From contig CACYUI010000002.1 in NCBI GenBank assembly GCA_902777605.1, positions 33,337 to 97,336 of the forward strand: DNA of 64,000 nucleotides, read 5' to 3'. The position numbers were made by a program, and so were the translations under genes. The DNA comes from an uncultured bacterium. GTDB lineage: Bacteria > Cyanobacteriota > Vampirovibrionia > Gastranaerophilales > Gastranaerophilaceae. This document shows positions 6,791 to 58,743 of this stretch, piece by piece. The notes beneath the pieces are model-generated. The model did not search any database and was not told the origin of the DNA. It saw nothing but the letters and a program-made list of their open reading frames with translations. Every line of letters begins with the position of its first letter. The first letter of the stretch is position 1.

Positions 6791-6859
6791 CATATATATA
6801 AAGTATTCTAAAACTAAAAAATTGCATAATTTATAAAATTTGTTACAAAGATTTACAAT
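6791..6859 (-). promoter_or_regulatory. Class-A promoter with HLR1-like direct repeat
   Basis: Coding strand: HLR1 (6842-6859, + strand GTTACAAA-ga-TTTACAAT) - 14 nt - ATGCAA - 16 nt - TACTTTATATATATG. Confidence 0.7.
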
Positions 6860-6912
6860 TATAAATCAATTTATGTATTTTGGCGCAAAAAATCTAAAAA
6901 TGGTAATTATTC

Positions 6913-7266
6913 GGGTATTTCTTTCTCTTTTTGGTTGCGATGCAAAAGGAGAAAGAAATACCCAAAAGAAAGAGAAAAACACGCAATCGTTTTCTATGCC
7001 CTTACGGGCAATTTTTCATGTTCGGCAAAGCCGAATCTTTAACGCGCCCTAAATAACGGGCGCGGTGCTAAATTCACTCGTATTTAAAAATTATGTCCAA
7101 GCCTGTCGTAACGAATAAACAATGTTTGTGAGACAGGAACAAAGCGGGCATTGTTTGAGCGAAGCGAGTTTGCCCGCTTAAGTCGAGCAATTACAATTGT
7201 TTAATGAGTGAAGACCGAGCTTGGAGAGTTTCTTTGGTTCGTTTCTTTGCGGGCAAAGAAATGAAC
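6913..7266. repeat. Cassette of tandem hairpins (MITE-like or structured RNA)
   Basis: At least six stems: GGGTATTTCTTTCTC/GAGAAAGAAATACCC, TGCCC/GGGCA, TTCGGC/GCCGAA, CGCGCCC/GGGCGCG, AAGCGGGCA/TGCCCGCTT, GTTCGTTTCTTTGC/GCAAAGAAATGAAC. Confidence 0.55.
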
Positions 7267-7348
7267 AATAAAAAGTACGATACTTTTTAAACTTTTGCAC
7301 CATTATACATATTTTGGTGCAATTTAATACTTGTGCTAAAATCAGATT

Positions 7349-8314
7349 ATGAATATTAATAAAGGTGACATAATTGGAATAATTGCTTTATCAGGCGATT
7401 GTGACAGAGATAAAATTGAGAAAGCAAAAGCCAATATTGAGGCTTTAGGATATAGAGTTGAATTGTCACAAAACATTTTTGATAAAGACAGGTATCTTGC
7501 AGGCTCTGATGAGGTTAGAATCAAAGAACTTCACAGATTCTTTAAAGATGACAAAATAAAGATTATACTCTGTGCTCGTGGCGGATATGGCGCAATTAGA
7601 CTGATTAATGATATTGATTATGATTTGATTAAGAATAATCCAAAGCCGTTTTGCGGATTTTCTGATGTTACAGCACTTTTATTAATGATATACAAAAAAA
7701 TAGGAATAGTTACTTATCATTCACCTATGGCTCAAACTGATTTTTACTTCCCCACACCCTGCCCTCTCCCTCTAGGGACGAGTGAAACTGAGCAAGAGGC
7801 ACAAACGGATTTTACAAATCTTCCCTCGCACTTCGGGAGAAGGAATGAGGGTGAGGGGGCAAGCTCTGAAACAATAAGAACCTTTTTCGAAGTTATAAAT
7901 AACAAAAAATCTGAATATAAAATTACAAAAACATATCATAATGATGACACTGCAGGCATTCTTTGGGGTGGAAATCTTTCTACTGTTGTTTCACTTTGCG
8001 GTCAAGATTTTATACCAAACGATGATTTTATATTTTTTACAGAAGATTTATGTGAGCCGGTGTATAAGATTGATAAAATGTTTCAGCAGTTAATAAATAT
8101 AAAAGAGTTTAGAGATAGATGCAGGGCAATTATATTGGGTGATTTTTCAGACACAGATAATCAAGAATGGCTTGAAGAGTATTTTATTGAACTTGCTCAA
8201 AGATTGAATATACCAGTTGTACATATTGATGGTATTACACATTCTGAGAATAAAATAACATTACCGATTGGAGTTCGTGCAAGAATTGAGGAAGAAAAAC
8301 TGATTTTTGAATAG
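7349..8314 (+). CDS. LD-carboxypeptidase (peptidase S66) with in-frame palindromic insertion
   Basis: ARGGYGA, GFSDVTA (Ser), WGGNLS, FTED (Glu), THSENKITLPIG (His); extra ~38 aa Pro/Gly/Glu segment. Confidence 0.88.
   Translation: MNINKGDIIGIIALSGDCDRDKIEKAKANIEALGYRVELSQNIFDKDRYLAGSDEVRIKELHRFFKDDKIKIILCARGGYGAIRLINDIDYDLIKNNPKPFCGFSDVTALLLMIYKKIGIVTYHSPMAQTDFYFPTPCPLPLGTSETEQEAQTDFTNLPSHFGRRNEGEGASSETIRTFFEVINNKKSEYKITKTYHNDDTAGILWGGNLSTVVSLCGQDFIPNDDFIFFTEDLCEPVYKIDKMFQQLINIKEFRDRCRAIILGDFSDTDNQEWLEEYFIELAQRLNIPVVHIDGITHSENKITLPIGVRARIEEEKLIFE
7748..7862. repeat. Palindromic repeat inserted in frame in the S66 peptidase
   Basis: GC-rich island with imperfect terminal inverted repeats CCCCACACCCTGCCCTCTCCC ... 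GGGAGAAGGAATGAGGGTGAGGGGG; boundaries approximate. Confidence 0.65.
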
Positions 8315-8401
8315 TTGTTGTTAATTAGTTATGGCGATTCTTCACATTCGTTCAGAATGACTAATAGAATTAAACCTTATTTTTAGGTTAAAAAATAAAA
8401 A

Positions 8402-8661
8402 GCCGTACCACTGTCTATCGAAATAGAGCGAAAAAGATTTTGCTTATACAACCTACTTCTTAAAACTATAACACCCGCAAGGGTTACCTTAGTGCTGCTA
8501 TGTTTCCATCCTGACACGGTTCGATATCTTACGCCATTATATTCTAAGCTATCAACAATCCTATAAACATAGGCTCATTCGCTATACCCCTCACAACAGG
8601 CTCTGCACCTCGCATAAGCGTTCGAGTCGAGAGAACCGCCAATTCCCCGTGGAGTACGGCA
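8402..8661 (-). ncRNA. ffs: Signal recognition particle RNA, long (Alu-containing) bacterial type
   Basis: Helix 8 core GAACCGTGTCAGG-ATG-GAAA-CAT-AGCAGCACTAAG (CAGG...AGCAG at 8495-8513). The 5' TGCCGTACTCCACGGGGAATTGGCGG and 3' GACAGTGGTACGGC resemble the Bacillus scRNA ends and pair with each other. ~260 nt. Confidence 0.85.
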
Positions 8662-8666
8662 GGGGT

Positions 8667-8695
8667 ATAATAACATAAAAAAATTTTTAACTCAA
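8667..8695 (-). promoter_or_regulatory. Sigma70-type promoter of SRP RNA
   Basis: TTGAGT-N17-TATTAT with extended -10 TG, ending 5 nt before the RNA 5' end. Confidence 0.7.
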
Positions 8696-8700
8696 TATAT

Positions 8701-8728
8701 AAAAGGTGACTTATTAAAAGTCACCTTT
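8701..8728 (-). terminator. Intrinsic terminator of 8735-9922
   Basis: AAAGGTGACTT/AAGTCACCTTT stem. Confidence 0.7.
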
Positions 8729-8734
8729 ATTTTA

Positions 8735-9922
8735 TTAACTCCAGTCTTTTGTACCGTATCCATTATGCCAGCTGTATTGCTTAAGTTCATATTTGCCATC
8801 AGTTGTTTTTTGTAATGCGTATAATTGTCCGCCGGTTGCGTTACTTTTGTATATATATTCACCGTCTATTGTGTCTTGGTATGTATAAGTTATAGTCTTT
8901 GTATCATATATTGTTATTGTTTCAGGATGGTTACCTGTTAAAGAACTTACTATTTTTGTAGTTTTACCGGTTTTATTAACTGTATTTCTTGTCTTACCGC
9001 TAGTATCATTGGCAAGAGTTACATCACCGTTATTTAGTTTTGTTTTTCCATCGTAGTTTGTATAATTACCGTAAAGTTTTTGTTTTATAAGTTTTCTTAG
9101 AGCTTCATCTATTTTTGCTAAATCGTCAGCAGTTGGTTTTGGATTAAGTTCTAAATATTTATTAACAAAAGCTTTCTTTTCATCATCTGTGGTTGGAGTC
9201 AATTTTAACAATTCATCCAATGTTTTTGCATCATTAATTTTTGTTGCATTATCAGCTACAGTTGCAGGCGCCGGTGTAGCTGCAACTGTAGGTTTAGCTG
9301 CAACTTTTTTAGGAGATTTATCCGGTTCTGGCGTAGCTTTTGCTTTTCCGTCATTATCAGGAGTGCCTTTTAGTTCATTAATTTTATCTTGTAATCCAAA
9401 TTTTAATTGTTTAATATAATCTTTGTCCTTTTTATCTTCATTACCGTCAAGATTTTTTTCAAGAGCCACTATATCGTTTAATAAAGTTTCTAAATCTTTA
9501 ACTGAAGGCTTTTCTTGACCTAATAATTTATTTTTTCTTTCAAATAATTTATTAAGTTTTTCATAATCTTTGTTTTCTGCACCTTGTGTATTATTAGTGT
9601 TTCTGCTGCTCAATTGGTGACCACCGAGACCAAAATCACCCCAGCCGCCGCCGAATGATGGAAAGCCAAAACCAAATCCGCCGAAGATATTGCCTAAAAT
9701 ACCTGAGAACAGGTTAGCAAATCCCATTCCGAAGCCCATGCCAATTCCACCCCAAAAGCCGCCGCCCCAAGAGCTACTACCGCACCTACAATGTGGTGTA
9801 TTATATACAACATTAAATACACTAGGGATGTCTCCACAACAAGCTTTATGTCCGTGGAACATTTCGTAGTGTTGATATGCTGTGTGACATCCGACGCGTC
9901 TTGATTGTGAGAAGAATGACAT
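8735..9922 (-). CDS. Hypothetical protein with Gly/Phe-rich hydrophobic N-terminal segment
   Basis: 395 aa; GAGG RBS; GGGFWGGIGMGFGMGFANLFSGILGNIFGGFGFG; Pro/Ala/Thr linker; no Sec signal. Confidence 0.75.
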   Translation of the reverse strand: MSFFSQSRRVGCHTAYQHYEMFHGHKACCGDIPSVFNVVYNTPHCRCGSSSWGGGFWGGIGMGFGMGFANLFSGILGNIFGGFGFGFPSFGGGWGDFGLGGHQLSSRNTNNTQGAENKDYEKLNKLFERKNKLLGQEKPSVKDLETLLNDIVALEKNLDGNEDKKDKDYIKQLKFGLQDKINELKGTPDNDGKAKATPEPDKSPKKVAAKPTVAATPAPATVADNATKINDAKTLDELLKLTPTTDDEKKAFVNKYLELNPKPTADDLAKIDEALRKLIKQKLYGNYTNYDGKTKLNNGDVTLANDTSGKTRNTVNKTGKTTKIVSSLTGNHPETITIYDTKTITYTYQDTIDGEYIYKSNATGGQLYALQKTTDGKYELKQYSWHNGYGTKDWS

Positions 9923-9951
9923 ACTCTGTACCTCGTTTTTTACTTACATCT

Positions 9952-10020
9952 TATATATATAAAGTATATAAAATGTACTTAATTTCATAAGGTAATAAAT
10001 TTGTTACAAAACTTTACATT
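9952..10020 (-). promoter_or_regulatory. Class-A promoter with HLR1-like direct repeat
   Basis: HLR1 10003-10020 (GTTACAAA-ac-TTTACATT) - 14 nt - ATGAAA - 16 nt - TACTTTATATATATA. Confidence 0.7.
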
Positions 10021-11588
10021 GCTTGCTTTAGTTTAAAAACAATAAATACAAATCCTTTACCGACTTGTTTGATTGGAGCATAGTTAGTGAGTATATAATC
10101 ATAAATTTGTTGTGCATAATCTTGCCCGAAATATGAATAATAATAGTTTGAAGTGTCATAGTTGCTTATAACTATGTATTTTGGTTTATTATTGTATAGT
10201 CTTTCGATAATATTTTCTTCTCCAAAGGTTTCTATATATAGAGGAATTAATGAATAAAATTTATTATCAGAACTTCTTTTTGTCAAAAAGTTAATTGCTG
10301 TCGTTTCAGGTAGCACTAATATTTTGTCGTTATCACGAGTATTATCATTAATATAAGAAATTAATTCTTTAATTGAGTTTCCATAATAGTCATTAGAATA
10401 AACAATGCCGTTTTCAGTTTCAATTTTAATATTTTTCTCTGATAATGAAATTATATTCTTTGCAGAGAATGTAAAAGACATTATAAATACAATAATCAAT
10501 AAAGATTTTTTGTATCTTCGTGGTATGACAATAAATAATGATAAAACCGCAAGTGGAAGAAAATAAACTCCATAGGATAAGAGAGTTAGTGCAAAAAACA
10601 GCTTCAATGAGATTGCAAGAGTTGAAAATACGAGAAATTTTTTATTTAAATTTAAATTTTTATAGCTAAATATCAATAATATTAGCAAAAGGGGAAATAT
10701 ATAAACAAATATAGCAGGTGAAATTGTAAAGCAAAAATAGACTAAAATTAGGAGCGTTACTAACCAGTGTCTAAAAAAGTATAAAAATGCTAAAGGAATA
10801 AAGCATTTTAGGAAATTTATACCATAAATTGGTATAAGTTCCAGTCGAAAAGTCAATCCGCTAATTGAATAGAACCAATATAGCGTTTTAGTCGATGACA
10901 TAGTTAGTATTGTTTGACAAATATTAGATAAATCATTTACCCTCAGCCCCATAACCAAAAGAGGTAAAAATACAATAAAAATAGTGGCTATAATATTTAG
11001 TATACTTTTTAAAAACTCTTTTTTACCGCTATACCAAAATAAAATAGGAAGAAGAAATATAAATTCATATTTAGAACAAATTGCTAAAGCATAAAAAATA
11101 TAAGCAAGTTTTGATTTACCTTTCAATGCAAAATAAACAGAAAGAAGAACAAATAATATTCCGTATATAATACCGTATGAATATGGAAATATAAAATTAA
11201 ATACATTTGGAGAAAGAACTGAGGCTGCAATCGTTAGCATCACTATTGATAAACTGTATGTTTTGGGTAAAAATTTGTTTGATATTCTATATAACGAATT
11301 TAAAATTCCTAAAGTTGCCAAAAGTCCCGCAAAATATAAAACTCTGAGTTTTGTTCCAAAAATTAGCATTAAAAAAGCATTAATAATATAAGCTAAAGGC
11401 GGATAGACACAGAAAATATCTTTATACAAAACTTGACCTTTAAGCATTTGCACAGGAATATAAGCTTCTCTAAAAGAATCTATTATAATATGACCAAAAT
11501 GACCGTAAAATACTGCAAATATTAGCAATGTAAGAACATTAAATAATATTAATTGCCAGTGTTTTTTTATTATATTATCCCAATTCAT
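10014..11588 (-). CDS. Multi-pass membrane glycosyltransferase-like protein (GT-C/ArnT-PMT-like)
   Basis: Many TM helices; DSFREAY and YKDIFCVYPPLAY in the first loop; C-terminal soluble domain. Confidence 0.6.
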   Translation of the reverse strand: MNWDNIIKKHWQLILFNVLTLLIFAVFYGHFGHIIIDSFREAYIPVQMLKGQVLYKDIFCVYPPLAYIINAFLMLIFGTKLRVLYFAGLLATLGILNSLYRISNKFLPKTYSLSIVMLTIAASVLSPNVFNFIFPYSYGIIYGILFVLLSVYFALKGKSKLAYIFYALAICSKYEFIFLLPILFWYSGKKEFLKSILNIIATIFIVFLPLLVMGLRVNDLSNICQTILTMSSTKTLYWFYSISGLTFRLELIPIYGINFLKCFIPLAFLYFFRHWLVTLLILVYFCFTISPAIFVYIFPLLLILLIFSYKNLNLNKKFLVFSTLAISLKLFFALTLLSYGVYFLPLAVLSLFIVIPRRYKKSLLIIVFIMSFTFSAKNIISLSEKNIKIETENGIVYSNDYYGNSIKELISYINDNTRDNDKILVLPETTAINFLTKRSSDNKFYSLIPLYIETFGEENIIERLYNNKPKYIVISNYDTSNYYYSYFGQDYAQQIYDYILTNYAPIKQVGKGFVFIVFKLKQAM

Positions 11589-11617
11589 AAACTTATCTTA
11601 ACAAAGCTTAACAAATA

Positions 11618-11652
11618 AAGCAATTTTTTTGAATAAAAAAACTTTATATATG
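11618..11652 (+). promoter_or_regulatory. Class-A promoter (variant)
   Basis: AAGCAA-N16-AACTTTATATATG; only a degenerate upstream repeat (CTTAAC x2). Confidence 0.5.
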
Positions 11653-11679
11653 TGTGTAGTAGATAGAAGGTGTTTTAAT

Positions 11680-12339
11680 ATGGCAATCAATCCATATACT
11701 TTAAATGGTTTATACCAAAAAGGCATATTAGATTATGTTGACCCTGAACTTTGTGCCGGTCAGCCGATTGTTTCTCAATATAACGGCATGTCTAATCCTT
11801 ATGCTAAAAACTACATGAATAATGCAATGCAAGGTAATTTATATCAAAATCACGGAATGCAAAATGATAGTTTTACATTTAACGGTGGCGGAATAGGTTC
11901 AAAGTCTAATTCATTTAATAATATGTTTGGACAAAATGGTGTAGGAGTATATTCTTCTTCAGTAAATAACATGTTTGGAGACGATAAAGTAGGTTCCAGA
12001 TATCAAGGTAATGCATTTGGTACCGGCGATACATCTATTGGTTCGTATTATCAAGGTGGCGGAGAAAATTCTTTTGGTGGATTTAGTGATGCAAGAAACA
12101 GTATAAATGGTGGTGTTGCAAAAGCACAAGCAATTTACAATAATACTCCTTCAGTTATAAAAGGCATTGCAGCTGTTGCGATTGGTTTACTGGGAATAAA
12201 AATGTTATTTAAAGGAAAAGGCAGTAAAACTGCTAAAAAAAGTTTTTTAGAAAAGATTCAGTTTTGGAAAAGTCCTAAGCCTGAACCTAAAAAAGCTGAG
12301 AAAAAAAGTTTCTTATCAAAATTAAAGTTTTGGAAATAA
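11680..12339 (+). CDS. Hypothetical Gly/Asn-rich protein with one TM helix and duplicated C-terminal SFLxKxxFWK motif
   Basis: Start moved to ATG 11680 (GAAGG RBS); NNMFG repeats; KKSFLEKIQFWK and KKSFLSKLKFWK. Confidence 0.7.
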   Translation: MAINPYTLNGLYQKGILDYVDPELCAGQPIVSQYNGMSNPYAKNYMNNAMQGNLYQNHGMQNDSFTFNGGGIGSKSNSFNNMFGQNGVGVYSSSVNNMFGDDKVGSRYQGNAFGTGDTSIGSYYQGGGENSFGGFSDARNSINGGVAKAQAIYNNTPSVIKGIAAVAIGLLGIKMLFKGKGSKTAKKSFLEKIQFWKSPKPEPKKAEKKSFLSKLKFWK

Positions 12340-12393
12340 ATAAACTATATTATTAACCTTATTAAAATACCTTATTAATTAACCAATTATCAC

Positions 12394-12415
12394 GCGCCCA
12401 TAGGCGCTTTTTTTT
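12394..12415 (+). terminator. Intrinsic terminator
   Basis: GCGCC-cata-GGCGC-T8. Confidence 0.7.
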
Positions 12416-12500
12416 ATGAAAACTTTTAATTAATCATTCCCTCTCCAGTAGGATGATTAGTGTTGGGGTTGATAAGAAACCATTCAGTCTCCAGCGGGGA

Positions 12501-12546
12501 GTGTACTAAAAAAGAACAGGCGGGAGTCTTTTGAACTCTCGCCTGC
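12501..12546 (-). terminator. Intrinsic terminator of 12571-14787
   Basis: Minus strand GCAGGCGAGAGT-loop-ACTCCCGCCTGT-TCTTTTTT. Confidence 0.7.
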
Positions 12547-12570
12547 ATCTTTTTCATATTCCGGCTATTA

Positions 12571-14787
12571 TTAACCAAATAGGTTATTAAGTTCAGTAAT
12601 AATACCTTCGTTTGGTGAATGTCCGTCACAAGTGCATTTACATTCAACTTTACCTGTAACATCAACAGTAACTTTGACATCGTGGTCTTCAATTTTGACT
12701 TCAATATCTTTTAAGCCTTTTTTAAGCAATTCTATAATTTCATTTATACCTGCAATCATTGTATCAGCTTTAATATTCATGTCGCCAAGCTTAACATTTG
12801 TTTCATTACCGTTCTTTTCTATTTTTGCTAAGAACTCAAGGATTTTATCCATGTTAACCTTGCCACTATTAATGATAACTTTCAGATTTGCTTGTGTATT
12901 GGCATCGAGAGCTTTGATTGCATTCAGTATTTCATCCATCTTGGCAAGACTCAATTTACCTTGTTCTAACAATGCTTTAAATCCTTCAGCGGTTGTTGTT
13001 CCAAGAGTCTTAATAGCTTCAAGTATTTTTTCGCCGATTTCTTTTGCATCTTTACCATTTTGAACAACATTATTGTTGATTGTCTTCAACAGTTCTGTCA
13101 TATCTTTGAGCTCTTGTGTATTACCATTGATTGCTTCAAGGATTGCTTGTAAGTATGCCTCTGTTTTAGAACCATCACCTATGTTCAAGTTCTTGATTGC
13201 TTTAAGAATTTCTTTCATCAATGCAATACCGGTATCACCTTGTGCTAATACTTTAGCAAATCCTGCTGACATATTTACACCAAGTTTGTTAATAGCCTCA
13301 ACTGTTTGTTTACCAATTTCTTTTGCTTCTTTTCTACCGTCGGTAATATTCTTATTGATGGCGTTGAGTAATGCTGTAATATCATCAAGTTTGCCGCCAT
13401 TTTTAACGATTGCATTTAATAGTGCCGTAAATTGAGCTTTGTTTTCGTCACCAAGATTTGCAAGAGCTTTTAATACTGCATTATAGAATGCTTCTGCTTT
13501 ATCACCTTGTTCATTAATTTTGTCTAATATAGCTTGACTAATACCAAGTTGAACTTTTATGTTATTATTCAATTCAGCTAACTGACCACTAATTTGAACT
13601 GTGGTGAAATCAATGTGTTTCAGAAGTTGCAACATTAACAATAATTTTTCACTATCTTTAGTTTGAGTATTTCTAATTTTTTCAAGAAGAGCCTTAATAT
13701 CTTGTTGCGTAGCACCATTAATTGTTACTTGATTTAGTATAGCATCTATTTTACCTGCTAAAGCTTCTAAAGACCCTCTAATAGAAGAAATATCAGCATT
13801 TCCTGATTTAATTAGATTAATAATCATATTTAAATCGCCTTGGAACTCTGATTTAATTGATGCAGGAAGAGCTTTAATAAGTGCTGTTAAGTCTTTGACA
13901 GCATTTTCTACATTATAAACAGCCTCCAACAAGTCATCAAATCCCATATTCATGTCATTTTGAATCTTTTTAAGCAATGCGTTATTATCTACTACTGCAG
14001 TCAAAATTTGTGGTAAATAGTTTCCACATGTATTTTTGATATCTTGCAATGAATCACCATTTTTAATAGATTGTTCAAGCAACTGTATTAGTATTGCATT
14101 ACTTACATCTTGTTTTTCATTAAGTGCATTAATAGCATCGGCCAATGACTTTAACTCAATTCCTACTTCAACGGTCTGCTCAGTACTGCACATACCCATA
14201 ATACCTGTCGCAGCACCTGCATAGCCAAGTAATGTACTAAATGTATTTTCAATACTAAAATTCCCATTAGCATCTGTAAACCCTCTGTAATTGGATTCTT
14301 TCATTTCATCAGGAAATGGAAATTCTACTTTACCTTTAGTCGCATTATATGCAACTAGTCTTGCGGGAGCAATCTTTTCTTTTTGTCTAAAATATTTTTC
14401 TTTTATTTGAGTACCATCTTTTGCATAAAATTTATAAGTTTCTTTACCGGTTTTCGGATCTTTTTGATATACGATATATCTTCCAGATTTCATAGTACAA
14501 AATTTAGGTTCATATTTTTGCGGATTTTTTGCTCTGTCTTTTTTTACTTCTGCTTGATTTAACTGTGCAAAGTTTTTGGAATGTTTAAAATCTAACTTCT
14601 CGCCTACACCCCAATTAGCATTACCATTTATTGTTTCTAAAGCTGCATCATCTGCTTTTGTCCATGCACCATTTTGCTTTGCCATAGCAATAGCGTCTTC
14701 AACAGATTTTGCAATTGTCATAAATGGTTTTAACTTTGATTGTTGTGTCGGTGTTAAATCACTAAAATCAATTTTTCCAAATGCCAT
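12571..14787 (-). CDS. Large coiled-coil repeat protein (~738 aa), function unknown
   Basis: Start moved to ATG 14787 (GAAAGGAG RBS); long heptad region with internal repeats KEAKEIGKQTVEAINKLG / KDAKEIGEKILEAIKTLG. Confidence 0.8.
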   Translation of the reverse strand: MAFGKIDFSDLTPTQQSKLKPFMTIAKSVEDAIAMAKQNGAWTKADDAALETINGNANWGVGEKLDFKHSKNFAQLNQAEVKKDRAKNPQKYEPKFCTMKSGRYIVYQKDPKTGKETYKFYAKDGTQIKEKYFRQKEKIAPARLVAYNATKGKVEFPFPDEMKESNYRGFTDANGNFSIENTFSTLLGYAGAATGIMGMCSTEQTVEVGIELKSLADAINALNEKQDVSNAILIQLLEQSIKNGDSLQDIKNTCGNYLPQILTAVVDNNALLKKIQNDMNMGFDDLLEAVYNVENAVKDLTALIKALPASIKSEFQGDLNMIINLIKSGNADISSIRGSLEALAGKIDAILNQVTINGATQQDIKALLEKIRNTQTKDSEKLLLMLQLLKHIDFTTVQISGQLAELNNNIKVQLGISQAILDKINEQGDKAEAFYNAVLKALANLGDENKAQFTALLNAIVKNGGKLDDITALLNAINKNITDGRKEAKEIGKQTVEAINKLGVNMSAGFAKVLAQGDTGIALMKEILKAIKNLNIGDGSKTEAYLQAILEAINGNTQELKDMTELLKTINNNVVQNGKDAKEIGEKILEAIKTLGTTTAEGFKALLEQGKLSLAKMDEILNAIKALDANTQANLKVIINSGKVNMDKILEFLAKIEKNGNETNVKLGDMNIKADTMIAGINEIIELLKKGLKDIEVKIEDHDVKVTVDVTGKVECKCTCDGHSPNEGIITELNNLFG

Positions 14788-14842
14788 AGTTTGTATTCTC
14801 CTTTCTAAATTTTCATAACAATACAATCCTACTTTGGTATTG

Positions 14843-14904
14843 TTATCGGCATTTTTTTTTAAAACTTTAGAGAATTATGAAAAATCGTTACATAACTTTA
14901 CATA
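14843..14904 (-). promoter_or_regulatory. Sigma28 (FliA/SigD)-type promoter with HLR1-like repeat
   Basis: Coding strand TAAAGTTT-N11-GCCGATAA (exact sigma28 consensus, 14843-14869); HLR1 14887-14904 (GTTACATA-ac-TTTACATA) 17 nt upstream. Confidence 0.8.
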
Positions 14905-14990
14905 AATTTCTGAAAATCAATTATAATTTCATCTAAAAGAGTGATGAAAAAAATAATTAAATAATTTATCCTTCATATAGCGAGGTAAAT

Positions 14991-15227: not shown

Positions 15228-15241
15228 TACATAATTTTTCT

Positions 15242-15404: not shown

Positions 15405-15419
15405 ATATACAATTAAAGT

Positions 15420-15719: not shown

Positions 15720-15730
15720 TTATTTTTTTG

Positions 15731-15764
15731 GGATTACTTCGTCGCTTCGCTCCTCGTAATGACA
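15731..15764. repeat. Third right-half repeat copy
   Basis: Identical to 15242-15275. Confidence 0.85.
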
Positions 15765-16772: not shown

Positions 16773-16788
16773 TGGTGACAGAGGGAAA

Positions 16789-19186: not shown

Positions 19187-20386
19187 ATGTTGAGCCGTAT
19201 AGTACTTATATCAGATGATACTGACTTTTTTGAATATATGGTTCAAAAACTTTCTTTAAGAAAAAGCGATGAATTGTATCGCTTTTGTTTTAATGAAATA
19301 CCAGAAAAATTACCTGAGATAAAAACATCACTATTTATTATAAACGCTGAAAGAGCAAAAGATAAAACTATTGACATATTAAGGTTGCTTAAAACTACCC
19401 CTGTAATAGTATTTACTTATAACTATAATGAATCTTTTGCCCTTCAAGGATATAGATTGGGAATGTTTGATTATATTACAGTAGATTGCACAGATGCAGA
19501 AATCGAAGCTAAAATTATGTCTGCTCTTAATCTTCTTTCATCATTTGAAAAAAATATGAAATATAGAGAATTGCTTGAAAATAATAATATTATTGCTAAG
19601 CATAATGAAGTATACTTAGACTATTGCGGAATAATTGACCAAGAGCTTTTTTCACTAAATAGAAATAAAAAAGAAGCTGTATTAGTTGCAATATCACCAA
19701 ATGAGCAAACAAAATTTTTACTACAGCCAAATCAAATAGAAACTGTTGTTTTAAGCAATATAAGAGCAAATGACATTCTAATGAGTTATGGTATAAATAA
19801 ATATTTTTTACTATTGCAAAATACAAATATTAAAAATGCTGAAAAAATTTGGAAAAAGATATCATCTTCACTCTCTGAAAAAATATATGCAGGTTTCTCT
19901 TCATCTATGGGGAAAAATCGTCAACAACTTATTAATGACTCATTAAATAAGTTGCATGAAGCAATAAATAAGGATAATATAGTTGCTATAAACAGTTCTA
20001 GAGATCCATTGAGTAACAATTTTAAGTTATTTAAAAAAGAATTCATGAAAAAGATTGAAAATACAATTTCTCCTGTATTTTTCTTAATACAACAAAAATA
20101 TAATGATAAATTATACGGAATAAATATTGAGCAGGGTACAGGTGATGGTTATGGAGTGCTATACATAAAAAGTAAATATTCAAGCGGAAAATTTAGGGTT
20201 ACAAGTCCGGGACTCTCAAAAGTAAATATTGATATTTCGTATGAATCAACTGTAAAAAATAACTCCTTGGAATCAAAAAGAATTTGTCTTGAACCGGATG
20301 AGCTAGAATCTGGTCTATTAGAAGATTTATTAGAACAATTTATATCAGAATTTAAAACAGAGGTAGAAAATGAGTATATTAAATGA
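19187..20386 (+). CDS. Receiver-like + degenerate GGDEF-like protein
   Basis: N-terminal REC-like fold (GMFDYIT); DILMSYGINKYFLLLQNT aligns to the GGDEF loop without the catalytic motif. Confidence 0.5.
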   Translation: MLSRIVLISDDTDFFEYMVQKLSLRKSDELYRFCFNEIPEKLPEIKTSLFIINAERAKDKTIDILRLLKTTPVIVFTYNYNESFALQGYRLGMFDYITVDCTDAEIEAKIMSALNLLSSFEKNMKYRELLENNNIIAKHNEVYLDYCGIIDQELFSLNRNKKEAVLVAISPNEQTKFLLQPNQIETVVLSNIRANDILMSYGINKYFLLLQNTNIKNAEKIWKKISSSLSEKIYAGFSSSMGKNRQQLINDSLNKLHEAINKDNIVAINSSRDPLSNNFKLFKKEFMKKIENTISPVFFLIQQKYNDKLYGINIEQGTGDGYGVLYIKSKYSSGKFRVTSPGLSKVNIDISYESTVKNNSLESKRICLEPDELESGLLEDLLEQFISEFKTEVENEYIK

Positions 20387-26454: not shown

Positions 26455-26527
26455 GCGTCCTTAGTTCAGTTGGTAGAACGTCGGTCTCCAAAACCGGATG
26501 TCGAGGGTTCGAGTCCTTCAGGGCGCG
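26455..26527 (+). tRNA. trnW: tRNA-Trp (CCA)
   Basis: GCGTCCT/AGGGCGC acceptor stem, anticodon loop CTCCAAA, GGTTCGAGTCC T-arm; canonical position between rpmG and secE; 3' CCA not encoded. Confidence 0.95.
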
Positions 26528-36224: not shown

Positions 36225-36818
36225 ATGAGAGAGTTAATAAAAAATGACCAGTTAGTAACAATTGTTCCTCAAGATTTTAAGAATACAAACAAAGGAAAAG
36301 TACTTAATGTTTCAATAGATGGATTTAAAATGGAGTTAAAATATAAACCGGAAGGACTATTTGTTAATCATATTTGTGATTTTTACTCATTTACTGATAA
36401 CGGATATTTATATTTCGAATCATATATTCAATCATTAGAAAATAACATTATAACCATTGCAAATCCGGTAAAACATAGATTCTTACAAAGGCGTAAGTTT
36501 ACTCGTATCAAATTTATTGAAGAATTGGAGCTAACATGTAATAACATTACTCATAAAATTAGAACTCTTGACTTGTCAGCAGGAGGAATGAAAATTCAGA
36601 CACAGGAGAATATTGATATTGAAACTGAGTATAATGTTAGTCTCAAGCTAAGTGATGAACAAGAAATTAAGTGTAAATATCAATTAATAAGAATTGAAAA
36701 AGGTGATAACGGATTATACACAATATCAGGAAGATTTACATCTCTAAGTAACATTGATAAAATGACTTTAGTTCAGTTCTGTATGAAAAAAGACATGGAA
36801 AATATTAATAAGAAATAA
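36225..36818 (+). CDS. PilZ-domain (YcgR-like) c-di-GMP receptor
   Basis: QRRKFTR (RxxxR) and DLSAGGM (DxSxxG). Confidence 0.85.
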   Translation: MRELIKNDQLVTIVPQDFKNTNKGKVLNVSIDGFKMELKYKPEGLFVNHICDFYSFTDNGYLYFESYIQSLENNIITIANPVKHRFLQRRKFTRIKFIEELELTCNNITHKIRTLDLSAGGMKIQTQENIDIETEYNVSLKLSDEQEIKCKYQLIRIEKGDNGLYTISGRFTSLSNIDKMTLVQFCMKKDMENINKK

Positions 36819-40209: not shown

Positions 40210-40285
40210 TGGTGGGCGTTACAAGACTCGAACTTGTGACCCTCTGAATGTCGTTCAGATGCGCTACCAACTGCGCCAAACGCCC
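40210..40285 (-). tRNA. trnV: tRNA-Val (GAC)
   Basis: GGGCGTT/AACGCCC acceptor + ACCA, D-arm GCGC/GCGC, anticodon stem TCTGA/TCAGA with loop ACGACAT, T-loop TTCGAGT; 76 nt. Confidence 0.9.
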
Positions 40286-42715: not shown

Positions 42716-43150
42716 TTAGCCTCCTTGAAGTAATCCTGTGTCTTGAGCTGCTGTAGAAGTTGCTGTCTTTGCAGATTCTTTTTGAGCTCTTAATTCTTCA
42801 AGCATTGTATCCATTGTTTGTCTCATTGTATCGTAATCAATATCTAAGTCTTCTAATTCTTCTAACAATTCTTCGTTAAATTGTTTTACTTTTGCGTGTG
42901 CATATGCATCTGCTATCGAAGTATTTTGGTTATCTATTGCAACTGTGATGCTGCCACATCTTTTTTCTTTATCATTGCCAATAGCATCATCGTAAGCTTT
43001 TTCCCATTTTTCTTCGTACTTAACTTGCTCTTCAAGTTTTGCACTTACGCCTTCATATTTACTATTCCAATAAATAGATTGCTGAGTATAATAGTTTATG
43101 TCTGCATTGATTGCTAATAAATTTCCTAATAAAGCTGCTGTGTTTGACAT
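42716..43150 (-). CDS. Lineage-specific helical protein (144 aa), homolog of 57533-58645
   Basis: AAGG RBS; N-terminal LLAINA; C-terminal DIDYD...MDT...ES.K motif shared with 57533-58645. Confidence 0.75.
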   Translation of the reverse strand: MSNTAALLGNLLAINADINYYTQQSIYWNSKYEGVSAKLEEQVKYEEKWEKAYDDAIGNDKEKRCGSITVAIDNQNTSIADAYAHAKVKQFNEELLEELEDLDIDYDTMRQTMDTMLEELRAQKESAKTATSTAAQDTGLLQGG

Positions 43151-43176
43151 TTTCTTATACCTTTTGTTTCATCTTA

Positions 43177-43245
43177 CATATATATAAAGTATTTAAAAAT
43201 TATTGAATTTCAAAAAGGTTTTATTTTGTTACAAAAGTTTACATT
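43177..43245 (-). promoter_or_regulatory. Class-A promoter with HLR1-like direct repeat
   Basis: HLR1 43228-43245 (GTTACAAA-ag-TTTACATT) - 14 nt - TTGAAA - 16 nt - TACTTTATATATATG. Confidence 0.7.
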
Positions 43246-45217: not shown

Positions 45218-45218
45218 T

Positions 45219-51204: not shown

Positions 51205-51266
51205 TAATTGTTGATTATTACACAATTATCACTGACAAATTGTAATATTTAAAATATAATATTAAT

Positions 51267-52421: not shown

Positions 52422-52456
52422 TTTTATAGTATAATACCTTTCAGGGAGCTAATATT

Positions 52457-53584: not shown

Positions 53585-53593
53585 GCACTGCAT

Positions 53594-54421
53594 ATGGATA
53601 GATATAGGTTAATTGGAAGTATAATTTTTCTATATGTGATGCTTTTAACAGAATATCCGTTACCTACTATTATAACAACGATTGTGATTATTGCAGCATA
53701 CTTGATTATCAGATTTGCACCAAATATCGGTGCAAACAATAAAGGCTTTTACAATATACATTCTAATAGAGGAGCTAGATTAGCTGCATTGGATGTAGCA
53801 GCAATATATCTATCACCTTATACAGACATTTGGCGAAATCTTAAGCTAACCAACAAGAATTGCATTGCAATATTAGGACATAACGGAGAAAGAATTGTAG
53901 TCAGAGAAAAAACGCATAATACTAATGCTCCCTATAGAACATTCCGTATTATACAATCTAAAAGGTATAATATGCAAGAAGTTTGGAATATGTTTTGCTT
54001 AAATTTTGATTACCATACAACTTATGATGATTTAGTATTTAAGTGTAAAGAACTTTTTAAAGTATCAATATTAGAAAGTTATAACGGCAACACATCTGTA
54101 TCAAGCACTGCTTCTAAAATTTATAAGAACAATAAATCCGTAATTGAAAACAACACAAGCAATGATAATATCAAAAAAGTTGATATTAATAATGCATCAG
54201 AGATTGAATTAACGGAGCTTCCGGGAATAAGTATTGTAATATCTAAAAAGATAATAAAAAAACGAGAAGAAATAAACGGTTTTAAAAATATTCATGACTT
54301 CTTCATGTTTATCAAAGTTAAACCTCACATGGAAGAACAATTAAAAGATAAAATATGTGTAAATGAAATGAAAGGTTCACTAAAAATTGAGCGTTTTCAG
54401 GAAAGGCATATTGATTTTTAA
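53594..54421 (+). CDS. Membrane protein with C-terminal ComEA-like helix-hairpin-helix
   Basis: Two N-terminal TM helices; VDINNASEIELTELPGISIVISKKII. Confidence 0.75.
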   Translation: MDRYRLIGSIIFLYVMLLTEYPLPTIITTIVIIAAYLIIRFAPNIGANNKGFYNIHSNRGARLAALDVAAIYLSPYTDIWRNLKLTNKNCIAILGHNGERIVVREKTHNTNAPYRTFRIIQSKRYNMQEVWNMFCLNFDYHTTYDDLVFKCKELFKVSILESYNGNTSVSSTASKIYKNNKSVIENNTSNDNIKKVDINNASEIELTELPGISIVISKKIIKKREEINGFKNIHDFFMFIKVKPHMEEQLKDKICVNEMKGSLKIERFQERHIDF

Positions 54422-55237
54422 ATGGATATAATTAATTTGATTGATATTATAGTTATCATATTTGTTTTATTAGTTATATATATAGCTAGAAGTATAGAAC
54501 GAAAAAATATTCAAAAGCGTTCAGAATTAGAAAGACGCTTGCACATTTTTATGAATCAAGGAAAAATTAAAAACAGACTAATAAACGCCAACTGTGAAAT
54601 ACGACTTATAAACATTGGGTCATTAACTAAAAACAATAATTTAGTATTGTTCTGCAAAGAGCACCCACTACCGGGTAGATTAGGCAAAAAATTTACATTA
54701 TCTGATACAAGAGAGCATGTTGCTACTATATGGGCAATGTTCAACATGGAATTTAATAATGCAACAAATATTAATTCTTTAAAGACATTATACGCTCTGC
54801 TAAACCCAAGATACAAATATTTATTGAATGAAAATAGTAAAACTTATGAAAACCTATTGCCTGAAAATATGGCAGAAAATGAATATTGCAGAATGGAACT
54901 GGTACAACAAAAACTAAACGAATTTGTATTAATTGTATATGATATTTGGGATTGTTCTGAAGAACCAAGAAATTTTATAATAAAAGGAAGTTATGACTAT
55001 CTCAACAGAATATTAACAGAATTTAAATTGAAAAAAAATAAATTTAGAATGTTTTATGAAATAAAAAATGATTATCAATTACAAAATGATAATGAAGTTA
55101 TAGTAAAACCTCAAGATGAAATTGTTAATCCTGAATCAAACGAAAAGACAGTTTACAGTAATGAAAAGGAAAATTTTTATAAAAATACTATTGAACAATA
55201 TATTCAAAAGAATAACGAGAGAAAGCTGGATTTATAG
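54422..55237 (+). CDS. Hypothetical membrane-anchored protein, partial paralog of 53594-54421
   Basis: N-terminal TM; shared WxMFxxxFxxxT motif; C-terminal ERKLDL versus ERHIDF. Confidence 0.65.
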   Translation: MDIINLIDIIVIIFVLLVIYIARSIERKNIQKRSELERRLHIFMNQGKIKNRLINANCEIRLINIGSLTKNNNLVLFCKEHPLPGRLGKKFTLSDTREHVATIWAMFNMEFNNATNINSLKTLYALLNPRYKYLLNENSKTYENLLPENMAENEYCRMELVQQKLNEFVLIVYDIWDCSEEPRNFIIKGSYDYLNRILTEFKLKKNKFRMFYEIKNDYQLQNDNEVIVKPQDEIVNPESNEKTVYSNEKENFYKNTIEQYIQKNNERKLDL

Positions 55238-55834
55238 ATGAAGCTTAGAGTATATAATATTGTAAAAAATACTAAAGTTGAAGGTCCTGAAACGAGATAT
55301 TGCATCTGGGTACAAGGATGCTCCAAACACTGCAAAGGATGTCAAGCTACTCATACTTGGTCACACAATGGCGGTAGATTATATAAAGTAAGTGATATTA
55401 TAGACGATATAAAATTTCACAAAAATAAGGTTGAAGGAGTAACCTTTCTAGGTGGTGAACCTTTTGAACAATCAGAGGCATTGGGAATAATAGCAGAAGA
55501 AGTCCAAAAAATGGGACTTGGAGTTTTATGTTTTACTGGAAATTTATTGGAAGATTTACTTAAAAACAAAAAACATACAAAACTTCTTAAAAATACTGAT
55601 TTACTTATTGACGGCGCATTTGAAAAAGACAAAGTTGATTATTCGCGTCCTTGGTGCGGATCCTCAAATCAAAGATACCATTTTTTATCAAAAAGATATA
55701 ATGAAGAAATTTTTACAAAATACAAAAACAAAGTAGAAGTTAACATAAATCCTAATGGCATAGTTTTTATGAACGGAATGGGAAATTTTGAAAAAATTCT
55801 CAAAAAAATTGATTTGAAAAATATCGAAAAATAA
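55238..55834 (+). CDS. NrdG-like radical SAM / 4Fe-4S single-cluster protein
   Basis: VEGPETR...WVQGCSKHCKGC (CxxxCxxC), GVTFLGGEPFEQ, DLLIDG, WCGSSNQ. Confidence 0.85.
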   Translation: MKLRVYNIVKNTKVEGPETRYCIWVQGCSKHCKGCQATHTWSHNGGRLYKVSDIIDDIKFHKNKVEGVTFLGGEPFEQSEALGIIAEEVQKMGLGVLCFTGNLLEDLLKNKKHTKLLKNTDLLIDGAFEKDKVDYSRPWCGSSNQRYHFLSKRYNEEIFTKYKNKVEVNINPNGIVFMNGMGNFEKILKKIDLKNIEK

Positions 55835-55865
55835 GAGAAGGTACACTATTATGTACCTTCTCTTA
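55832..55865. terminator. Hairpin between convergent genes
   Basis: TAAGAGAAGGTACA-ctatta-TGTACCTTCTCTTA. Confidence 0.7.
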
Positions 55866-55882
55866 CATATATTTCATTAAAA

Positions 55883-57346
55883 TTAAATATTAGCAAGTTT
55901 CTTATAGTAATCATGTGATTGCTCAAACTTATAAGCAAAGTTAAATAATTTAGCTTCTGCCAGTTGAGGTGCCATTATTTGCAGTCCTATCGGCATACCA
56001 TCTTTATCAAACCCAGCCGGTATTGAAATAGCAGGTATTCCTGAAAGATTTGCACCAATAGTGGCAATATCTGTCAAATACATAGCGAGCGGATCCTCTG
56101 TTTTTGAACCTAAGTCAAAAGCTGTATTAGGGCATGTTGGTGCTATTAGTACATCTACTTGTTCAAAAGCCTTCAAAAAGTCTTCGTGAACAACTCTTCT
56201 CATTTGCAAGGCTTTTTTATAATATGCATCATAATATCCTGAGCTTAAAGCATATGTCCCAAGCATTATACGGCGTTTAACTTCAGGCCCAAACCCTTCT
56301 GCACGAGATTTGCAATAAAGTTCGAGCAAATTCTTAGCATCAGGAGTCCTGTGACCGTATCTTACACCATCGAATCTGGCTAAGTTAGAACTACATTCCG
56401 CTGTTGCTAGGATATAATAAATACCAATTGAATGCTTTATATTTGGTAAAGAAATTTCAATAATTTCTGCACCTATTGATTTATATGTATCAATTGCACC
56501 TTGAATTGCTTTTGATACATCTTCTGATAAGCCTTCACCGACAAGTTCTTTAACTACACCGACTTTCAATCCTTTAATATCATTATTTAAACTCTTTCTG
56601 TAATTTTCCACAGGAAGATTAAGTGAAGTAGAGTCATGATAATCATAACCCGATATAACCTCTAAAAGAGCAGCTGCATCTTCTACAGTTCTAGCAAATG
56701 GACCTATTTGGTCAAGAGATGATGCAAACGCAATCAAACCATACCTTGATACCTTACCGTACGTAGGTTTCATACCAACAATCCCACAGAAGCTTGCAGG
56801 TAAACGAATACTTCCACCTGTATCTGATCCTAATGCAAGCGTAGCTTCACAAGAAGCAACGGAAGCTGCAGAACCACCTGAAGAACCTCCCGGGACTTTA
56901 TTTAAATTCCAAGGATTATGAACTTTTTTAAACGCTGAGTTTTCATTAGAAGAACCCATCGCAAACTCATCTAAATTTGCTTTACCAACAATTGGAATTA
57001 AGTTATCCAAAAGTTTTTGTGTTGCAGTTGCGTTATATGGTGAGACAAAGTTCTCTAAAATTTTGCTGGATGCTGTAGTTTTAGAGCCTTTAAGGTTCAT
57101 GTTATCTTTCAGCGCAAGCGGTACCCCTGCAAGAAGCGGTAATTCTTCACCAGCTGCGATTTTTTCATCGACTTTTTTTGCAGTATTGAGTGCAATTTCC
57201 TCCGTTAATGAATTAAAAGCACCTAACTTTTCATCAACTGACTTAATTCTATCTAATGCAGCACTCGTAAGCTCAACTGCTGATACTTCTTTATTTTTAA
57301 GCGCTTCTGATTGTTCTATTGCGCTCTTCTTTAATATCTCTAGCAT
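55883..57346 (-). CDS. gatA: Asp/Glu-tRNA amidotransferase subunit A
   Basis: GKANLDEFAMGSS, PGGSSGGSAA, GSDTGGSIR, VSRYGLIAFASSLD, EVKRRIMLGTY. Confidence 0.97.
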   Translation of the reverse strand: MLEILKKSAIEQSEALKNKEVSAVELTSAALDRIKSVDEKLGAFNSLTEEIALNTAKKVDEKIAAGEELPLLAGVPLALKDNMNLKGSKTTASSKILENFVSPYNATATQKLLDNLIPIVGKANLDEFAMGSSNENSAFKKVHNPWNLNKVPGGSSGGSAASVASCEATLALGSDTGGSIRLPASFCGIVGMKPTYGKVSRYGLIAFASSLDQIGPFARTVEDAAALLEVISGYDYHDSTSLNLPVENYRKSLNNDIKGLKVGVVKELVGEGLSEDVSKAIQGAIDTYKSIGAEIIEISLPNIKHSIGIYYILATAECSSNLARFDGVRYGHRTPDAKNLLELYCKSRAEGFGPEVKRRIMLGTYALSSGYYDAYYKKALQMRRVVHEDFLKAFEQVDVLIAPTCPNTAFDLGSKTEDPLAMYLTDIATIGANLSGIPAISIPAGFDKDGMPIGLQIMAPQLAEAKLFNFAYKFEQSHDYYKKLANI

Positions 57347-57465
57347 ACTTTCTCCTTAGGGGCAAATCATCCCATACCCCACAACATTAATTATATCAAA
57401 AACAAAAATAGAAACAAAATTTTAGTATCTAACCTGCTACTATATTAGCTTATTAGGATTTTAAT

Positions 57466-57493
57466 AAAAAAAAAGCTTGAGTAAAACTCAAGC
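57466..57493 (-). terminator. Intrinsic terminator
   Basis: Minus strand GCTTGAGT-ttt-ACTCAAGC-T9. Confidence 0.8.
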
Positions 57494-57532
57494 GGAAAAA
57501 GGGAAAAGGGATTAAAAAGGGAAATCTTACAT

Positions 57533-58645
57533 CTATGAGAAGATACCGAATGTTCTTTCGATATTATCCTCAATAACTTTTTTGACAGAATCATACTCAG
57601 TTTTGAGAGCTGATCTTTCGGTTTCAAGTTTTGATAAATCCATATCAAATCTTTTATCTTTTTGGTCAATTTGTTTTCTTTTGTGTTCATACTCGGCTTC
57701 GGCTTTTGCATAAGCTGTTTTATCAATTGTTGTAGTTGCAACTTCTTCAAGACCTGAATCCGACGCAACAGTTGTAGCTTTGAACGAAACTTTACCTGTT
57801 TTAGAATCTCTTTCTGATACATCAACAATAATTTTTCCAGAACTAATCATTTGCTTTAACCATTCAGAATCATTTGCAGCATCACCGATTCCATCAATAC
57901 CATCAAATTCAGAAATTGCTACACATCCATTAGCTTGTTGAATTTCTTGGAAAATACGTACATAGTAATCAAATTCAGCGCTATCTTTGTCGGTAGGTTC
58001 ACCACCTATTGCATAATCATATACCTCACTGAAAGTGGAACTAAAGAATCTAAAATTGTATTCGTCTTCTAATGCTTGAAGTTTTTCTAAATCTTCATCA
58101 CTTATATCTTCATTATCACCATCTTCATCATATCCGATGTCTTCTTTGAATTTATCTATTTTACTTTGTATATTATCAAGATAAGATGTATTTTCTAATA
58201 AATCATACACATCCTCTTTTAATCCTATATAGTCATATTCATCTTCTATGTCAAACATAGCAAAAAGAGCAAATGCGTAAGGATCATTCTTATTAGCAGC
58301 AGAGCTATTTATAAAATCTTCATAATCTTCTTTTATCTGATCGGGAACAATAAGTCTACCCTTATCATCAATAAGTGCATATCTACCGTTTTTTGAATGA
58401 GGTACTACAAGTTCAGAACCATCAATTCCGCAAATATTATTAAAGTTAGCTGTAATTAAATTCCCTTGATAATCTTTAGCAACTAAAGTAGTAGCACTTG
58501 TAGCATTTAGGAAATCTTGGTATACCTGGTCTTCTTGTGTAGCCAGGGCAATCTTCGCGTTCTGAATACTTTGTGCTTGGTATTCAACGTCGTGCATTCT
58601 TGCTGTAATTGTTAGCAATCTAGCTTGCGATGCCGCCATTCCCAT
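57533..58645 (-). CDS. Lineage-specific helical protein (MGMAASQARLL family), 370 aa
   Basis: Start moved to ATG 58645 (AAGGA RBS); helical N-terminus MGMAASQARLLTITARM; helical C-terminus ending IERTFGIFS; acidic middle. Confidence 0.8.
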   Translation of the reverse strand: MGMAASQARLLTITARMHDVEYQAQSIQNAKIALATQEDQVYQDFLNATSATTLVAKDYQGNLITANFNNICGIDGSELVVPHSKNGRYALIDDKGRLIVPDQIKEDYEDFINSSAANKNDPYAFALFAMFDIEDEYDYIGLKEDVYDLLENTSYLDNIQSKIDKFKEDIGYDEDGDNEDISDEDLEKLQALEDEYNFRFFSSTFSEVYDYAIGGEPTDKDSAEFDYYVRIFQEIQQANGCVAISEFDGIDGIGDAANDSEWLKQMISSGKIIVDVSERDSKTGKVSFKATTVASDSGLEEVATTTIDKTAYAKAEAEYEHKRKQIDQKDKRFDMDLSKLETERSALKTEYDSVKKVIEDNIERTFGIFS

Positions 58646-58680
58646 AATTCTAATTTCCTTTTGTTGTCCCTTTGACATGT

Positions 58681-58743
58681 ATATCGGCATCTAAGGTTGA
58701 AAACTTTAGGATTTCACAGAATATTGTTACAAATCGTTACAAT
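58681..58743 (-). promoter_or_regulatory. Sigma28-type promoter with HLR1-like repeat
   Basis: TAAAGTTT-N12-GCCGATAT (58681-58708); HLR1 58726-58743 (GTTACAAA-tc-GTTACAAT) 17 nt upstream. Confidence 0.75.

Follow-up and report, generated by a model that had tools for sequence, protein, structure and literature searches.

A 64,000-nucleotide stretch of DNA from an uncultured gut bacterium (contig CACYUI010000002.1 of assembly GCA_902777605.1, positions 33,337 to 97,336; hereafter the window, numbered from its first letter) contains five exact matches to HLR1, the element bound by the regulator RpaB (Ycf27) in oxygenic cyanobacteria and red-lineage plastids. The Melainabacteria/Gastranaerophilales lineage to which this bacterium belongs has been described as non-photosynthetic. 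This raises the question of what such a box does in this host, and which protein reads it. Here we describe the placement of the box upstream of two types of core promoter, its conservation across the order Gastranaerophilales, and the case for an OmpR-family activator, probably a homolog of RpaB, as its binding partner.

Five HLR1 boxes precede minus-strand genes

The published HLR1 consensus, KTTACAWW-N2-KTTACAWW, is bound by RpaB (PMC13421787). Searching the window with KTTACAWWNNKTTACAWW returned exactly five exact matches, all on the plus strand and each upstream of a minus-strand gene. The chance expectation was 0.02 matches, and five were reached in 0 of 100 dinucleotide-preserving shuffles. 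An earlier reading of this stretch by a model that saw only its letters (the original prediction) had reported five exact matches in a single orientation, with well below one expected by chance, and all of this was borne out. Each box is a direct repeat of an octamer at a 10-bp period and, read on the minus strand in the direction of transcription, conforms to WWTGTAAM-NN-WWTGTAAC. Box 1 (6842-6859) is ATTGTAAATCTTTGTAAC, box 2 (10003-10020) is AATGTAAAGTTTTGTAAC and overlaps the stop codon of the upstream gene at 10014-11588, box 3 (14887-14904) is TATGTAAAGTTATGTAAC, box 4 (43228-43245) is AATGTAAACTTTTGTAAC and box 5 (58726-58743) is ATTGTAACGATTTGTAAC.

A weight matrix was also built solely from sites in other genomes, anchored only by their core promoters. 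This foreign-trained matrix recovered exactly the same five sites in the window (scores 21.9, 28.1, 25.5, 28.8 and 27.4 for boxes 1 to 5); the next-best window match scored 12.5, and the maximum in 20 simulated windows was 16.5. Looser boxes, searched for in the window as half-site pairs with one mismatch, occurred only at the chance rate. No Rfam family overlapped the boxes.

The boxes lie at fixed distances from two core promoters

At sites 1, 2 and 4 the box is followed by 14 nt and then by a core promoter that we term class A, WTGMAA-N16-TACTTTATATAT, with the 15-mer ATACTTTATATATAT identical in all three. The class-A core of the first target gene, t1 (6794..6827, minus strand), comprises ATGCAA (6822-6827), N16 and TACTTT (6800-6805), followed by ATATAT. 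The cores of t2 (9955..9988) and t4 (43180..43213), on the same strand, are ATGAAA-N16-TACTTTATATAT and TTGAAA-N16-TACTTTATATAT, respectively. At sites 3 and 5 the box is followed by 17 nt and then by TAAAG-N14-15-GCCGATAW, which matches the sigma-28 (FliA) pattern of -35 and -10 elements, TAAA-N15-GCCGATAA-type. The sigma-28 promoter of t3 (14843..14869, minus strand) is built from TAAAG (14865-14869), N14 and GCCGATAA (14843-14850), and that of t5 (58681..58708, minus strand) from TAAAG (58704-58708), N15 and GCCGATAT (58681-58688). Both spacings, 14 nt to the class-A -35 element and 17 nt to the sigma-28 -35 element, had been part of the original prediction and were confirmed at all five sites.

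A search of public RNA data for start mapping found no run containing this strain, and metatranscriptome contigs of a human-gut t5 ortholog, which cover the coding region at low depth, were too thin to place the 5′ end. Start positions were estimated from the consensus elements by setting the first transcribed base 7 nt beyond the -10 element. The box centres would then lie at -57.5 for class A and at -59.5 to -60.5 for sigma-28. In cyanobacteria RpaB activates when the centre of HLR1 lies between -66 and -45 (PMC6525291, PMC13421787). The motif is the published HLR1 consensus, as had been claimed, and its estimated centres (approximately -57 to -61) would fall inside the activating range. No site overlapping a transcription start, the repressing arrangement, was seen in the window. 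We infer that the box probably serves activation.

The strength of the core promoters is consistent with such a role for class A. The window's housekeeping promoters have canonical elements (TTGAGT-N17-TATTAT for the large bacterial signal recognition particle RNA at 8403-8659 on the minus strand; TTGCAA-N16-TGTATAAT for HU). In comparison the class-A -10 element, TACTTT, is poor, as would be expected of promoters that depend on an activator.

Box geometry is conserved across the order

Relatives of t5 were used to follow the box into other genomes. Among species-representative genomes, 79 loci with t5 relatives were collected, of which 74 had usable upstream regions. A sigma-28 promoter, CTAAAGTTTT-N11-12-GCCG(T/A)TAA, was present in 70 of the 74, and TGTAAM preceded TAAAG in 65 of them, at a distance of 16 nt (8 promoters), 17 nt (40), 27 nt (16) or 28 nt (1). 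Distances of 18-26 nt did not occur among the 74 promoters. The two spacing classes are exactly one helical turn apart, as expected if a protein has to bind on a particular side of the helix with respect to RNA polymerase. In these promoters the conserved positions are those of both hexamers, the 3 nt that follow the proximal hexamer, and the -35 and -10 elements; the spacers vary freely. The box is retained upstream of orthologs that share 30-85% protein identity.

The class-A composite is likewise conserved. It recurs in loci of other species, sometimes back-to-back with the boxed sigma-28 promoter of a t5 ortholog. The class-A core ATACTTTATATAT occurs 19 times in the window and the genome loci taken together, and every one of these cores is preceded, at an unchanged distance, by the box or something close to it. 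A scan of metagenomes that required only the proximal TGTAAC and the class-A core found the composite in at least 120 stretches from human-gut and rumen samples. Among the matches listed, 115 of 121 have TGTAAA, TATTAA, TGTTAA, TATTAC or TGTAAC (T-R-T-W-A-M) exactly 10 bp upstream. Since the distal hexamer was recovered although the scan did not require it, the tandem layout of a strong proximal and a weaker distal half-site does not stem from the way in which loci were chosen. Across the order, then, the data show the box itself, a fixed spacing and helical phasing, and conservation alongside either type of promoter. A lack of positional conservation upstream of orthologous genes, which the original prediction had named as an outcome that would refute it, was not what these genomes showed.

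The exact 15-mer common to three window sites, together with the several paralogs per genome seen in the target families, could also be explained if the boxes were merely inherited, as leftovers of a promoter cassette that was duplicated or mobile and perhaps came from a phage. However, only the functional elements are conserved while the spacers differ, the same box is paired with two unrelated core promoters, and it has been kept upstream of orthologs over the range of divergence given above. We find this explanation scarcely credible. A phage cassette in particular was rejected: viral contigs yielded only 1 and 4 matches, compared to the at least 120 in metagenomes.

In several t5 loci (L042, L044, L046, L051 and L062, at approximately 3870-3915) a pair of boxes stands back-to-back, one per strand, with about 14 nt between them; the t5 ortholog's sigma-28 promoter uses one, and a divergent class-A promoter has the second.

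The box is separable from sigma-28 recognition

In 1.4 Mb of related DNA the full box was found at 49 of 57 sigma-28 promoters of the t5 family and at 17 of 32 other sigma-28-like sites. Clean sigma-28 promoters lacking the box occur in loci L095, L136, L161 and L202, and the box is therefore not part of sigma-28 recognition itself. A FliA-type sigma factor is encoded in the lineage. In a Gastranaerophilales metagenome-assembled genome (MAG), a FliA/WhiG-family gene (L020:2961-3812, minus strand; 228 bits on TIGR02479, cut-off 189.6) divergently adjoins a t5 ortholog. Within the window itself no FliA-type sigma factor was found.

These data also bear on whether any dedicated factor is needed. 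The box lies upstream of the -35 roughly where UP elements do, and could in principle be read by RNA polymerase directly; alternatively, the box reads TTTACA on its other strand, which looks like a -35 hexamer and could belong to a divergent promoter. Both ideas are very improbable in our judgement. Each hexamer keeps its G and C positions and the two form a repeat, neither of which suits an A/T-tract UP element, and the box reaches to approximately -70. The dichotomy of 17 and 27 nt fits a protein bound on one helix face, and sigma-28 promoters that lack the box speak against an element read by the polymerase. Sites 2 and 5 have no divergent gene, the neighbour there being the 3′ end of a co-oriented gene.

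A proposed model for activation through the box

Tandem direct repeats with a period of 10-11 bp are a signature of OmpR/PhoB-family dimers bound head-to-tail. We propose that a phosphorylated response-regulator dimer of this winged-helix family would bind head-to-tail to the two TGTAAM half-sites, 10 bp apart, with the proximal TGTAAC(A/G)AT acting as a strong and the distal T-R-T-W-A-M as a weaker half-site. From a site whose centre is some 57-61 bp upstream of the start (about -60), or a further turn of the helix away (about -70), the dimer would recruit RNA polymerase in class-I fashion, probably through the alpha subunit's C-terminal domain (alpha-CTD). The same box would serve two holoenzymes, one containing sigma-28 (TAAAGTTTT-N11-GCCGWTAA) and the other being the reader of class A (WTGMAA-N16-TACTTTATATAT). 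Because one box stands at near-identical geometry with two different core promoters, the contact is most simply placed on the sigma-independent alpha-CTD.

Class-I activation is known from CRP, which acts at -61.5 and -71.5, positions one helical turn apart, independently of the sigma factor. Some flagellin promoters likewise need an upstream element for high expression, the classical one at sigma-D promoters being an A/T tract read by alpha. The boxes described here share with these systems the positions one helical turn apart and, in the proposed mechanism, the independence of the sigma factor; the protein and the motif differ, the box being a two-hexamer repeat.

An RpaB homolog is the prime candidate binder

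The closest known counterpart of the box is HLR1 as read by RpaB. The two have an identical 18-bp consensus arranged as direct octamers with a 10-bp period, both lie upstream of the core promoter, where the estimated centre here would be within the activating range, and both come from the same phylum. Homologs of RpaA, RpaB and NblS have been reported in every order of Melainabacteria, with their function left open (Di Rienzi et al. 2013; Soo et al. 2014). Each of the three gut Melainabacteria genomes analysed carries a single gene of the RpaB type, two of the RpaA type and one of the NblS type. Published work thus agrees with the earlier suggestion that an RpaB-like regulator exists in the lineage. 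If the RpaB homolog is the binder, it would presumably be controlled by the NblS-type kinase. The setting is unlike that of HLR1 in oxygenic cyanobacteria in several respects. The host lacks photosynthesis, known RpaB targets are absent among the genes behind the boxes, the box is partnered with sigma-28 and non-canonical class-A promoters instead of group-1/group-2 sigma promoters, and it is confined to one orientation and to quantised spacings (14, 17 or 27 nt).

Two other members of the family offer close comparisons. The WalR (YycF/VicR) box of Firmicutes, TGTWAH-N5-TGTWAH, has an 11-bp period and is read by an OmpR-family protein that controls a cell-wall turnover regulon. It resembles the present box in its hexamer (TGTAAA/TGTAAC) and its direct repeats, but differs in period, the spacing being N4 (10 bp) in the main clade as well as in each of the five boxes of the window, and in phylum and regulon. 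The RpaA-DNA complex illustrates head-to-tail binding on tandem repeats by an OmpR-family dimer that recruits polymerase via alpha-CTD; the RpaA site at PkaiBC, TAAA-N7-TTAA, has an 11-bp period and abuts the -35, which brings RpaA into contact with sigma region 4 as well (PMC12916501). It shares the tandem direct repeat with the present box, which differs from it in sequence, period and position, lying 14-27 nt further upstream.

On these grounds, namely the match to the HLR1 consensus, the estimated fit to the activating range, the reported presence of RpaB in the lineage and the misfit of the RpaA site, the RpaB homolog is the prime candidate and the most likely binder. The explanation as a whole, in which the box is the site of an OmpR-family activator, probably the RpaB homolog, that acts with two core promoters, is one we regard, with some reserve, as more likely than not to be correct.

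Several points weigh against it. The 27-nt variants would put the box centre near -71, beyond the published activating range, and the start positions themselves are estimates from consensus elements. TGTAAM is also the half-site of WalR, such that the half-site alone does not single out RpaB. Deep-branching t5 relatives depart from the 10-bp period: L075 and L077-L079 carry GTTAC-N6-TTAAC, and L076 carries TGTAAC-N5-TGTAAC, both with an 11-bp period. An OmpR-type gene was absent from the window, from approximately 18 kb of flanking contig and from approximately 1.4 Mb of related DNA. The searches for RpaB used a probe that matched genuine RpaB proteins (90-94% identity), as well as Gloeobacter RpaB against a library clustered at 50%. 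The AT-rich RpaB-like representatives that were followed up proved to be plastid Ycf27, marine sequences or cyanobacterial paralogs, none of them from Gastranaerophilales. The recognition helix of RpaB contains …DTRVVDVHISRLR.KLE….

Some of these points would be accommodated if another OmpR/PhoB-family regulator, either an RpaA-type paralog or a WalR/MtrA-like protein reading TGTAAM, bound the box. Each of the gut genomes has two RpaA-type genes beside its single RpaB-type gene, the nearest relatives of RpaB among solved structures are MtrA, RpaA and RegX3, the WalR consensus has the same half-site, and the L076 box has the 11-bp period. The strict 10-bp period of the main clade nevertheless fits HLR1 and not the 11 bp of WalR, and the cyanobacterial RpaA site differs in sequence and position, adjoining the -35 and touching sigma region 4. 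We consider such a regulator unlikely, though still a serious competitor.

Further from the RpaB model is a regulator outside the OmpR family, be it an unrecognised DNA-binding protein or one of two NarL/GerE-type response regulators encoded left of the window. These two Response_reg+GerE genes adjoin a gene for a GAF-HD-GYP protein and lie around 4-5 kb from site 1, and no OmpR-type gene was found near any target. However, the five sites are scattered, so that lying close to a single one of them says little, and GerE-type dimers usually read inverted repeats while the box is a direct repeat with a 10-bp period and unequal half-sites. This possibility we regard as improbable.

The targets are uncharacterised, lineage-specific proteins

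All five target genes lie on the minus strand. The protein of t1 (6511..6765; 84 aa) is without a family match, and an 84-aa gene is also called on the source contig. That of t2 (8735..9922; 395 aa), with a Cys- and Gly-rich N-terminus, and that of t3 (12571..14787), a 738-aa helical-repeat protein, are likewise without family matches. The gene t4 (42716..43150) encodes an acidic helical protein of 144 aa, and t5 (57533..58645) a protein of 370 aa (MGMAASQARLL…) that belongs to a large family specific to Melainabacteria. The start codons of t3 (ATG 14787) and t5 (ATG 58645) were corrected; a good ribosome-binding site precedes each, and independent gene calls for the source contig place them identically.

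Searches of the five proteins against Pfam, NCBIfam and PDB sequences gave no match. The same lack of a family match holds for all target families behind boxed sigma-28 and class-A promoters, and none is a known photosynthesis or light-acclimation gene. The targets had been called orphans, which is accurate insofar as they match no Pfam or NCBIfam family, but they are not orphans of a single genome. The t5 family has 2016 database homologs, the t2 ortholog in L054 stands behind a class-A promoter like that of t2, with a variant of the box, and t4 has six homologs behind the same promoter type in metagenomes. An export or surface programme, which the original prediction had assigned to these genes, found no support, as the targets lack family matches and the sole functional link is sigma-28, the flagellar sigma factor. 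Judging by predicted features, the regulon would comprise lineage-specific proteins without signal peptides, mostly helical or Gly-rich.

The t5 family, with several paralogs per genome, has N-terminal 50 and C-terminal 70 residues that are almost invariant and a hypervariable middle. The N-terminal helix is MGMAASQARLLTITARMHDVEYQAQSIQNAK and the C-terminus …LSKLETER.AL.TEY.SVKKVI.DNIERTFGIFS (loci L003-L079); the AlphaFold model of t5 (pLDDT 78) places long terminal helices around an alpha/beta domain. Assignment of t5 as a flagellin is unproven, with no Pfam, NCBIfam or PDB match and a best Foldseek hit (E = 0.038) that is not significant. Canonical flagellins are present elsewhere in the lineage.

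Many regulon proteins, including t4, t5 and the L097 and L115 families, begin with MA(I/L/V)xxLL… and end with …FG(L/I)x or …GL(L/I)QGG; these common termini may represent a shared assembly or export signal. The commonest class-A product is a peptide of 51-62 aa (41 loci). Class-A conservation runs past the -10 element into the presumed transcript start (ATATATGTAAGATGTAAA), both in the window (6780-6806, 9941-9967 and 43166-43192) and in loci L042, L044, L046, L051, L061 and L062, and the leaders of some class-A genes are apparently at least 160 nt long. The 5′ leaders of the t5 family keep AAGGGACAA…AAGGA, with the second GGA inside the ribosome-binding site, a pattern that we take to resemble the CsrA sites of flagellin leaders.

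A known element in a new setting

In the literature searched, no description of HLR1 or of promoter architecture in Melainabacteria was found. The element is of a known kind, an HLR1-type site of the OmpR family, and it is the setting that is new: a non-photosynthetic host, the pairing with sigma-28, strict orientation, quantised spacing and an uncharacterised regulon. More speculatively, and as an idea that could hold but that we would not assume, RpaB and NblS may act through HLR1 to switch on, in class-I manner, a regulon linked to sigma-28 that would comprise structural proteins by the dozen, all peculiar to the lineage, one family of which, with its conserved terminal helices, is flagellin-like in build.

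If true, the pair of RpaB and HLR1 would predate photosynthesis or exist independently of it, and could work with an alternative sigma factor. It would also provide the first functional handle on RpaB and NblS in Melainabacteria. For these retained 'light' regulators, the conserved HLR1-type box gives DNA targets, a predicted regulon and a predicted class-I/sigma-28 mechanism. A further point of interest is how a regulator of such deep conservation can persist together with its site when the genes under its control are replaced. The boxes also draw attention to many co-regulated proteins of widespread gut bacteria that are as yet uncharacterised and may have a link to motility. The stronger statement that this is an ancestral regulon from before photosynthesis is not supported, as the sample consists of Gastranaerophilales only and a deep sub-clade (L075-L079) has the 11-bp-period variant. 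The original interpretation is supported in part: the boxes are real, non-random and positioned as it had said, and their match to HLR1, their positional conservation and the RpaB homologs reported for the lineage agree with it. RpaB as the binder is a candidate, and the claims of ancestry and of an export or surface programme find no support.

Host and genomic setting

The lineage of the window had been correctly guessed from its letters. The gene rpoC is split, a hallmark of the phylum (the RpoC2 gene adjoins site 5), placing the host among non-photosynthetic Cyanobacteriota, and t5 relatives are confined to MAGs labelled Melainabacteria, Gastranaerophilales or Vampirovibrio, a few evident mislabels aside. 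The G+C content is approximately 32%, and the window sequence was detected in bovine, sheep and goat gut metagenomes. The source is a ruminant-gut member of the Gastranaerophilales (Melainabacteria). Beyond the window, the source contig was followed leftwards for approximately 7.5 kb and rightwards for approximately 8.7 kb. Two tRNA genes lie at 26455-26527 (plus strand) and 40213-40285 (minus strand).

The boxed t5 gene is directly downstream of rpoC2, beyond a terminator-like hairpin at 58810-58835. On plastid contigs (L086-L091, L215 and L216) ycf27, the plastid rpaB, is directly upstream of rpoB-rpoC1-rpoC2, and no regulator was found upstream of rpoB on the source contig. The resemblance between the plastid adjacency and the position of t5 is probably coincidence.

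Genes of the window include fliP, fliQ, fliR, flhB and flhA, the last followed by a gene for a PilZ protein (36225-36818), and a weak receiver/GGDEF-like protein is encoded at 19187-20386. The NarL/GerE-type regulators mentioned above (208 and 215 aa) belong to a cluster left of the window (L222 5492-9932) together with a tetratricopeptide-repeat protein and the GAF-HD-GYP phosphodiesterase, whose gene corresponds to 717-2396 of the window. This cluster, the PilZ protein and the receiver/GGDEF-like protein suggest cyclic di-GMP signalling around the motility genes.

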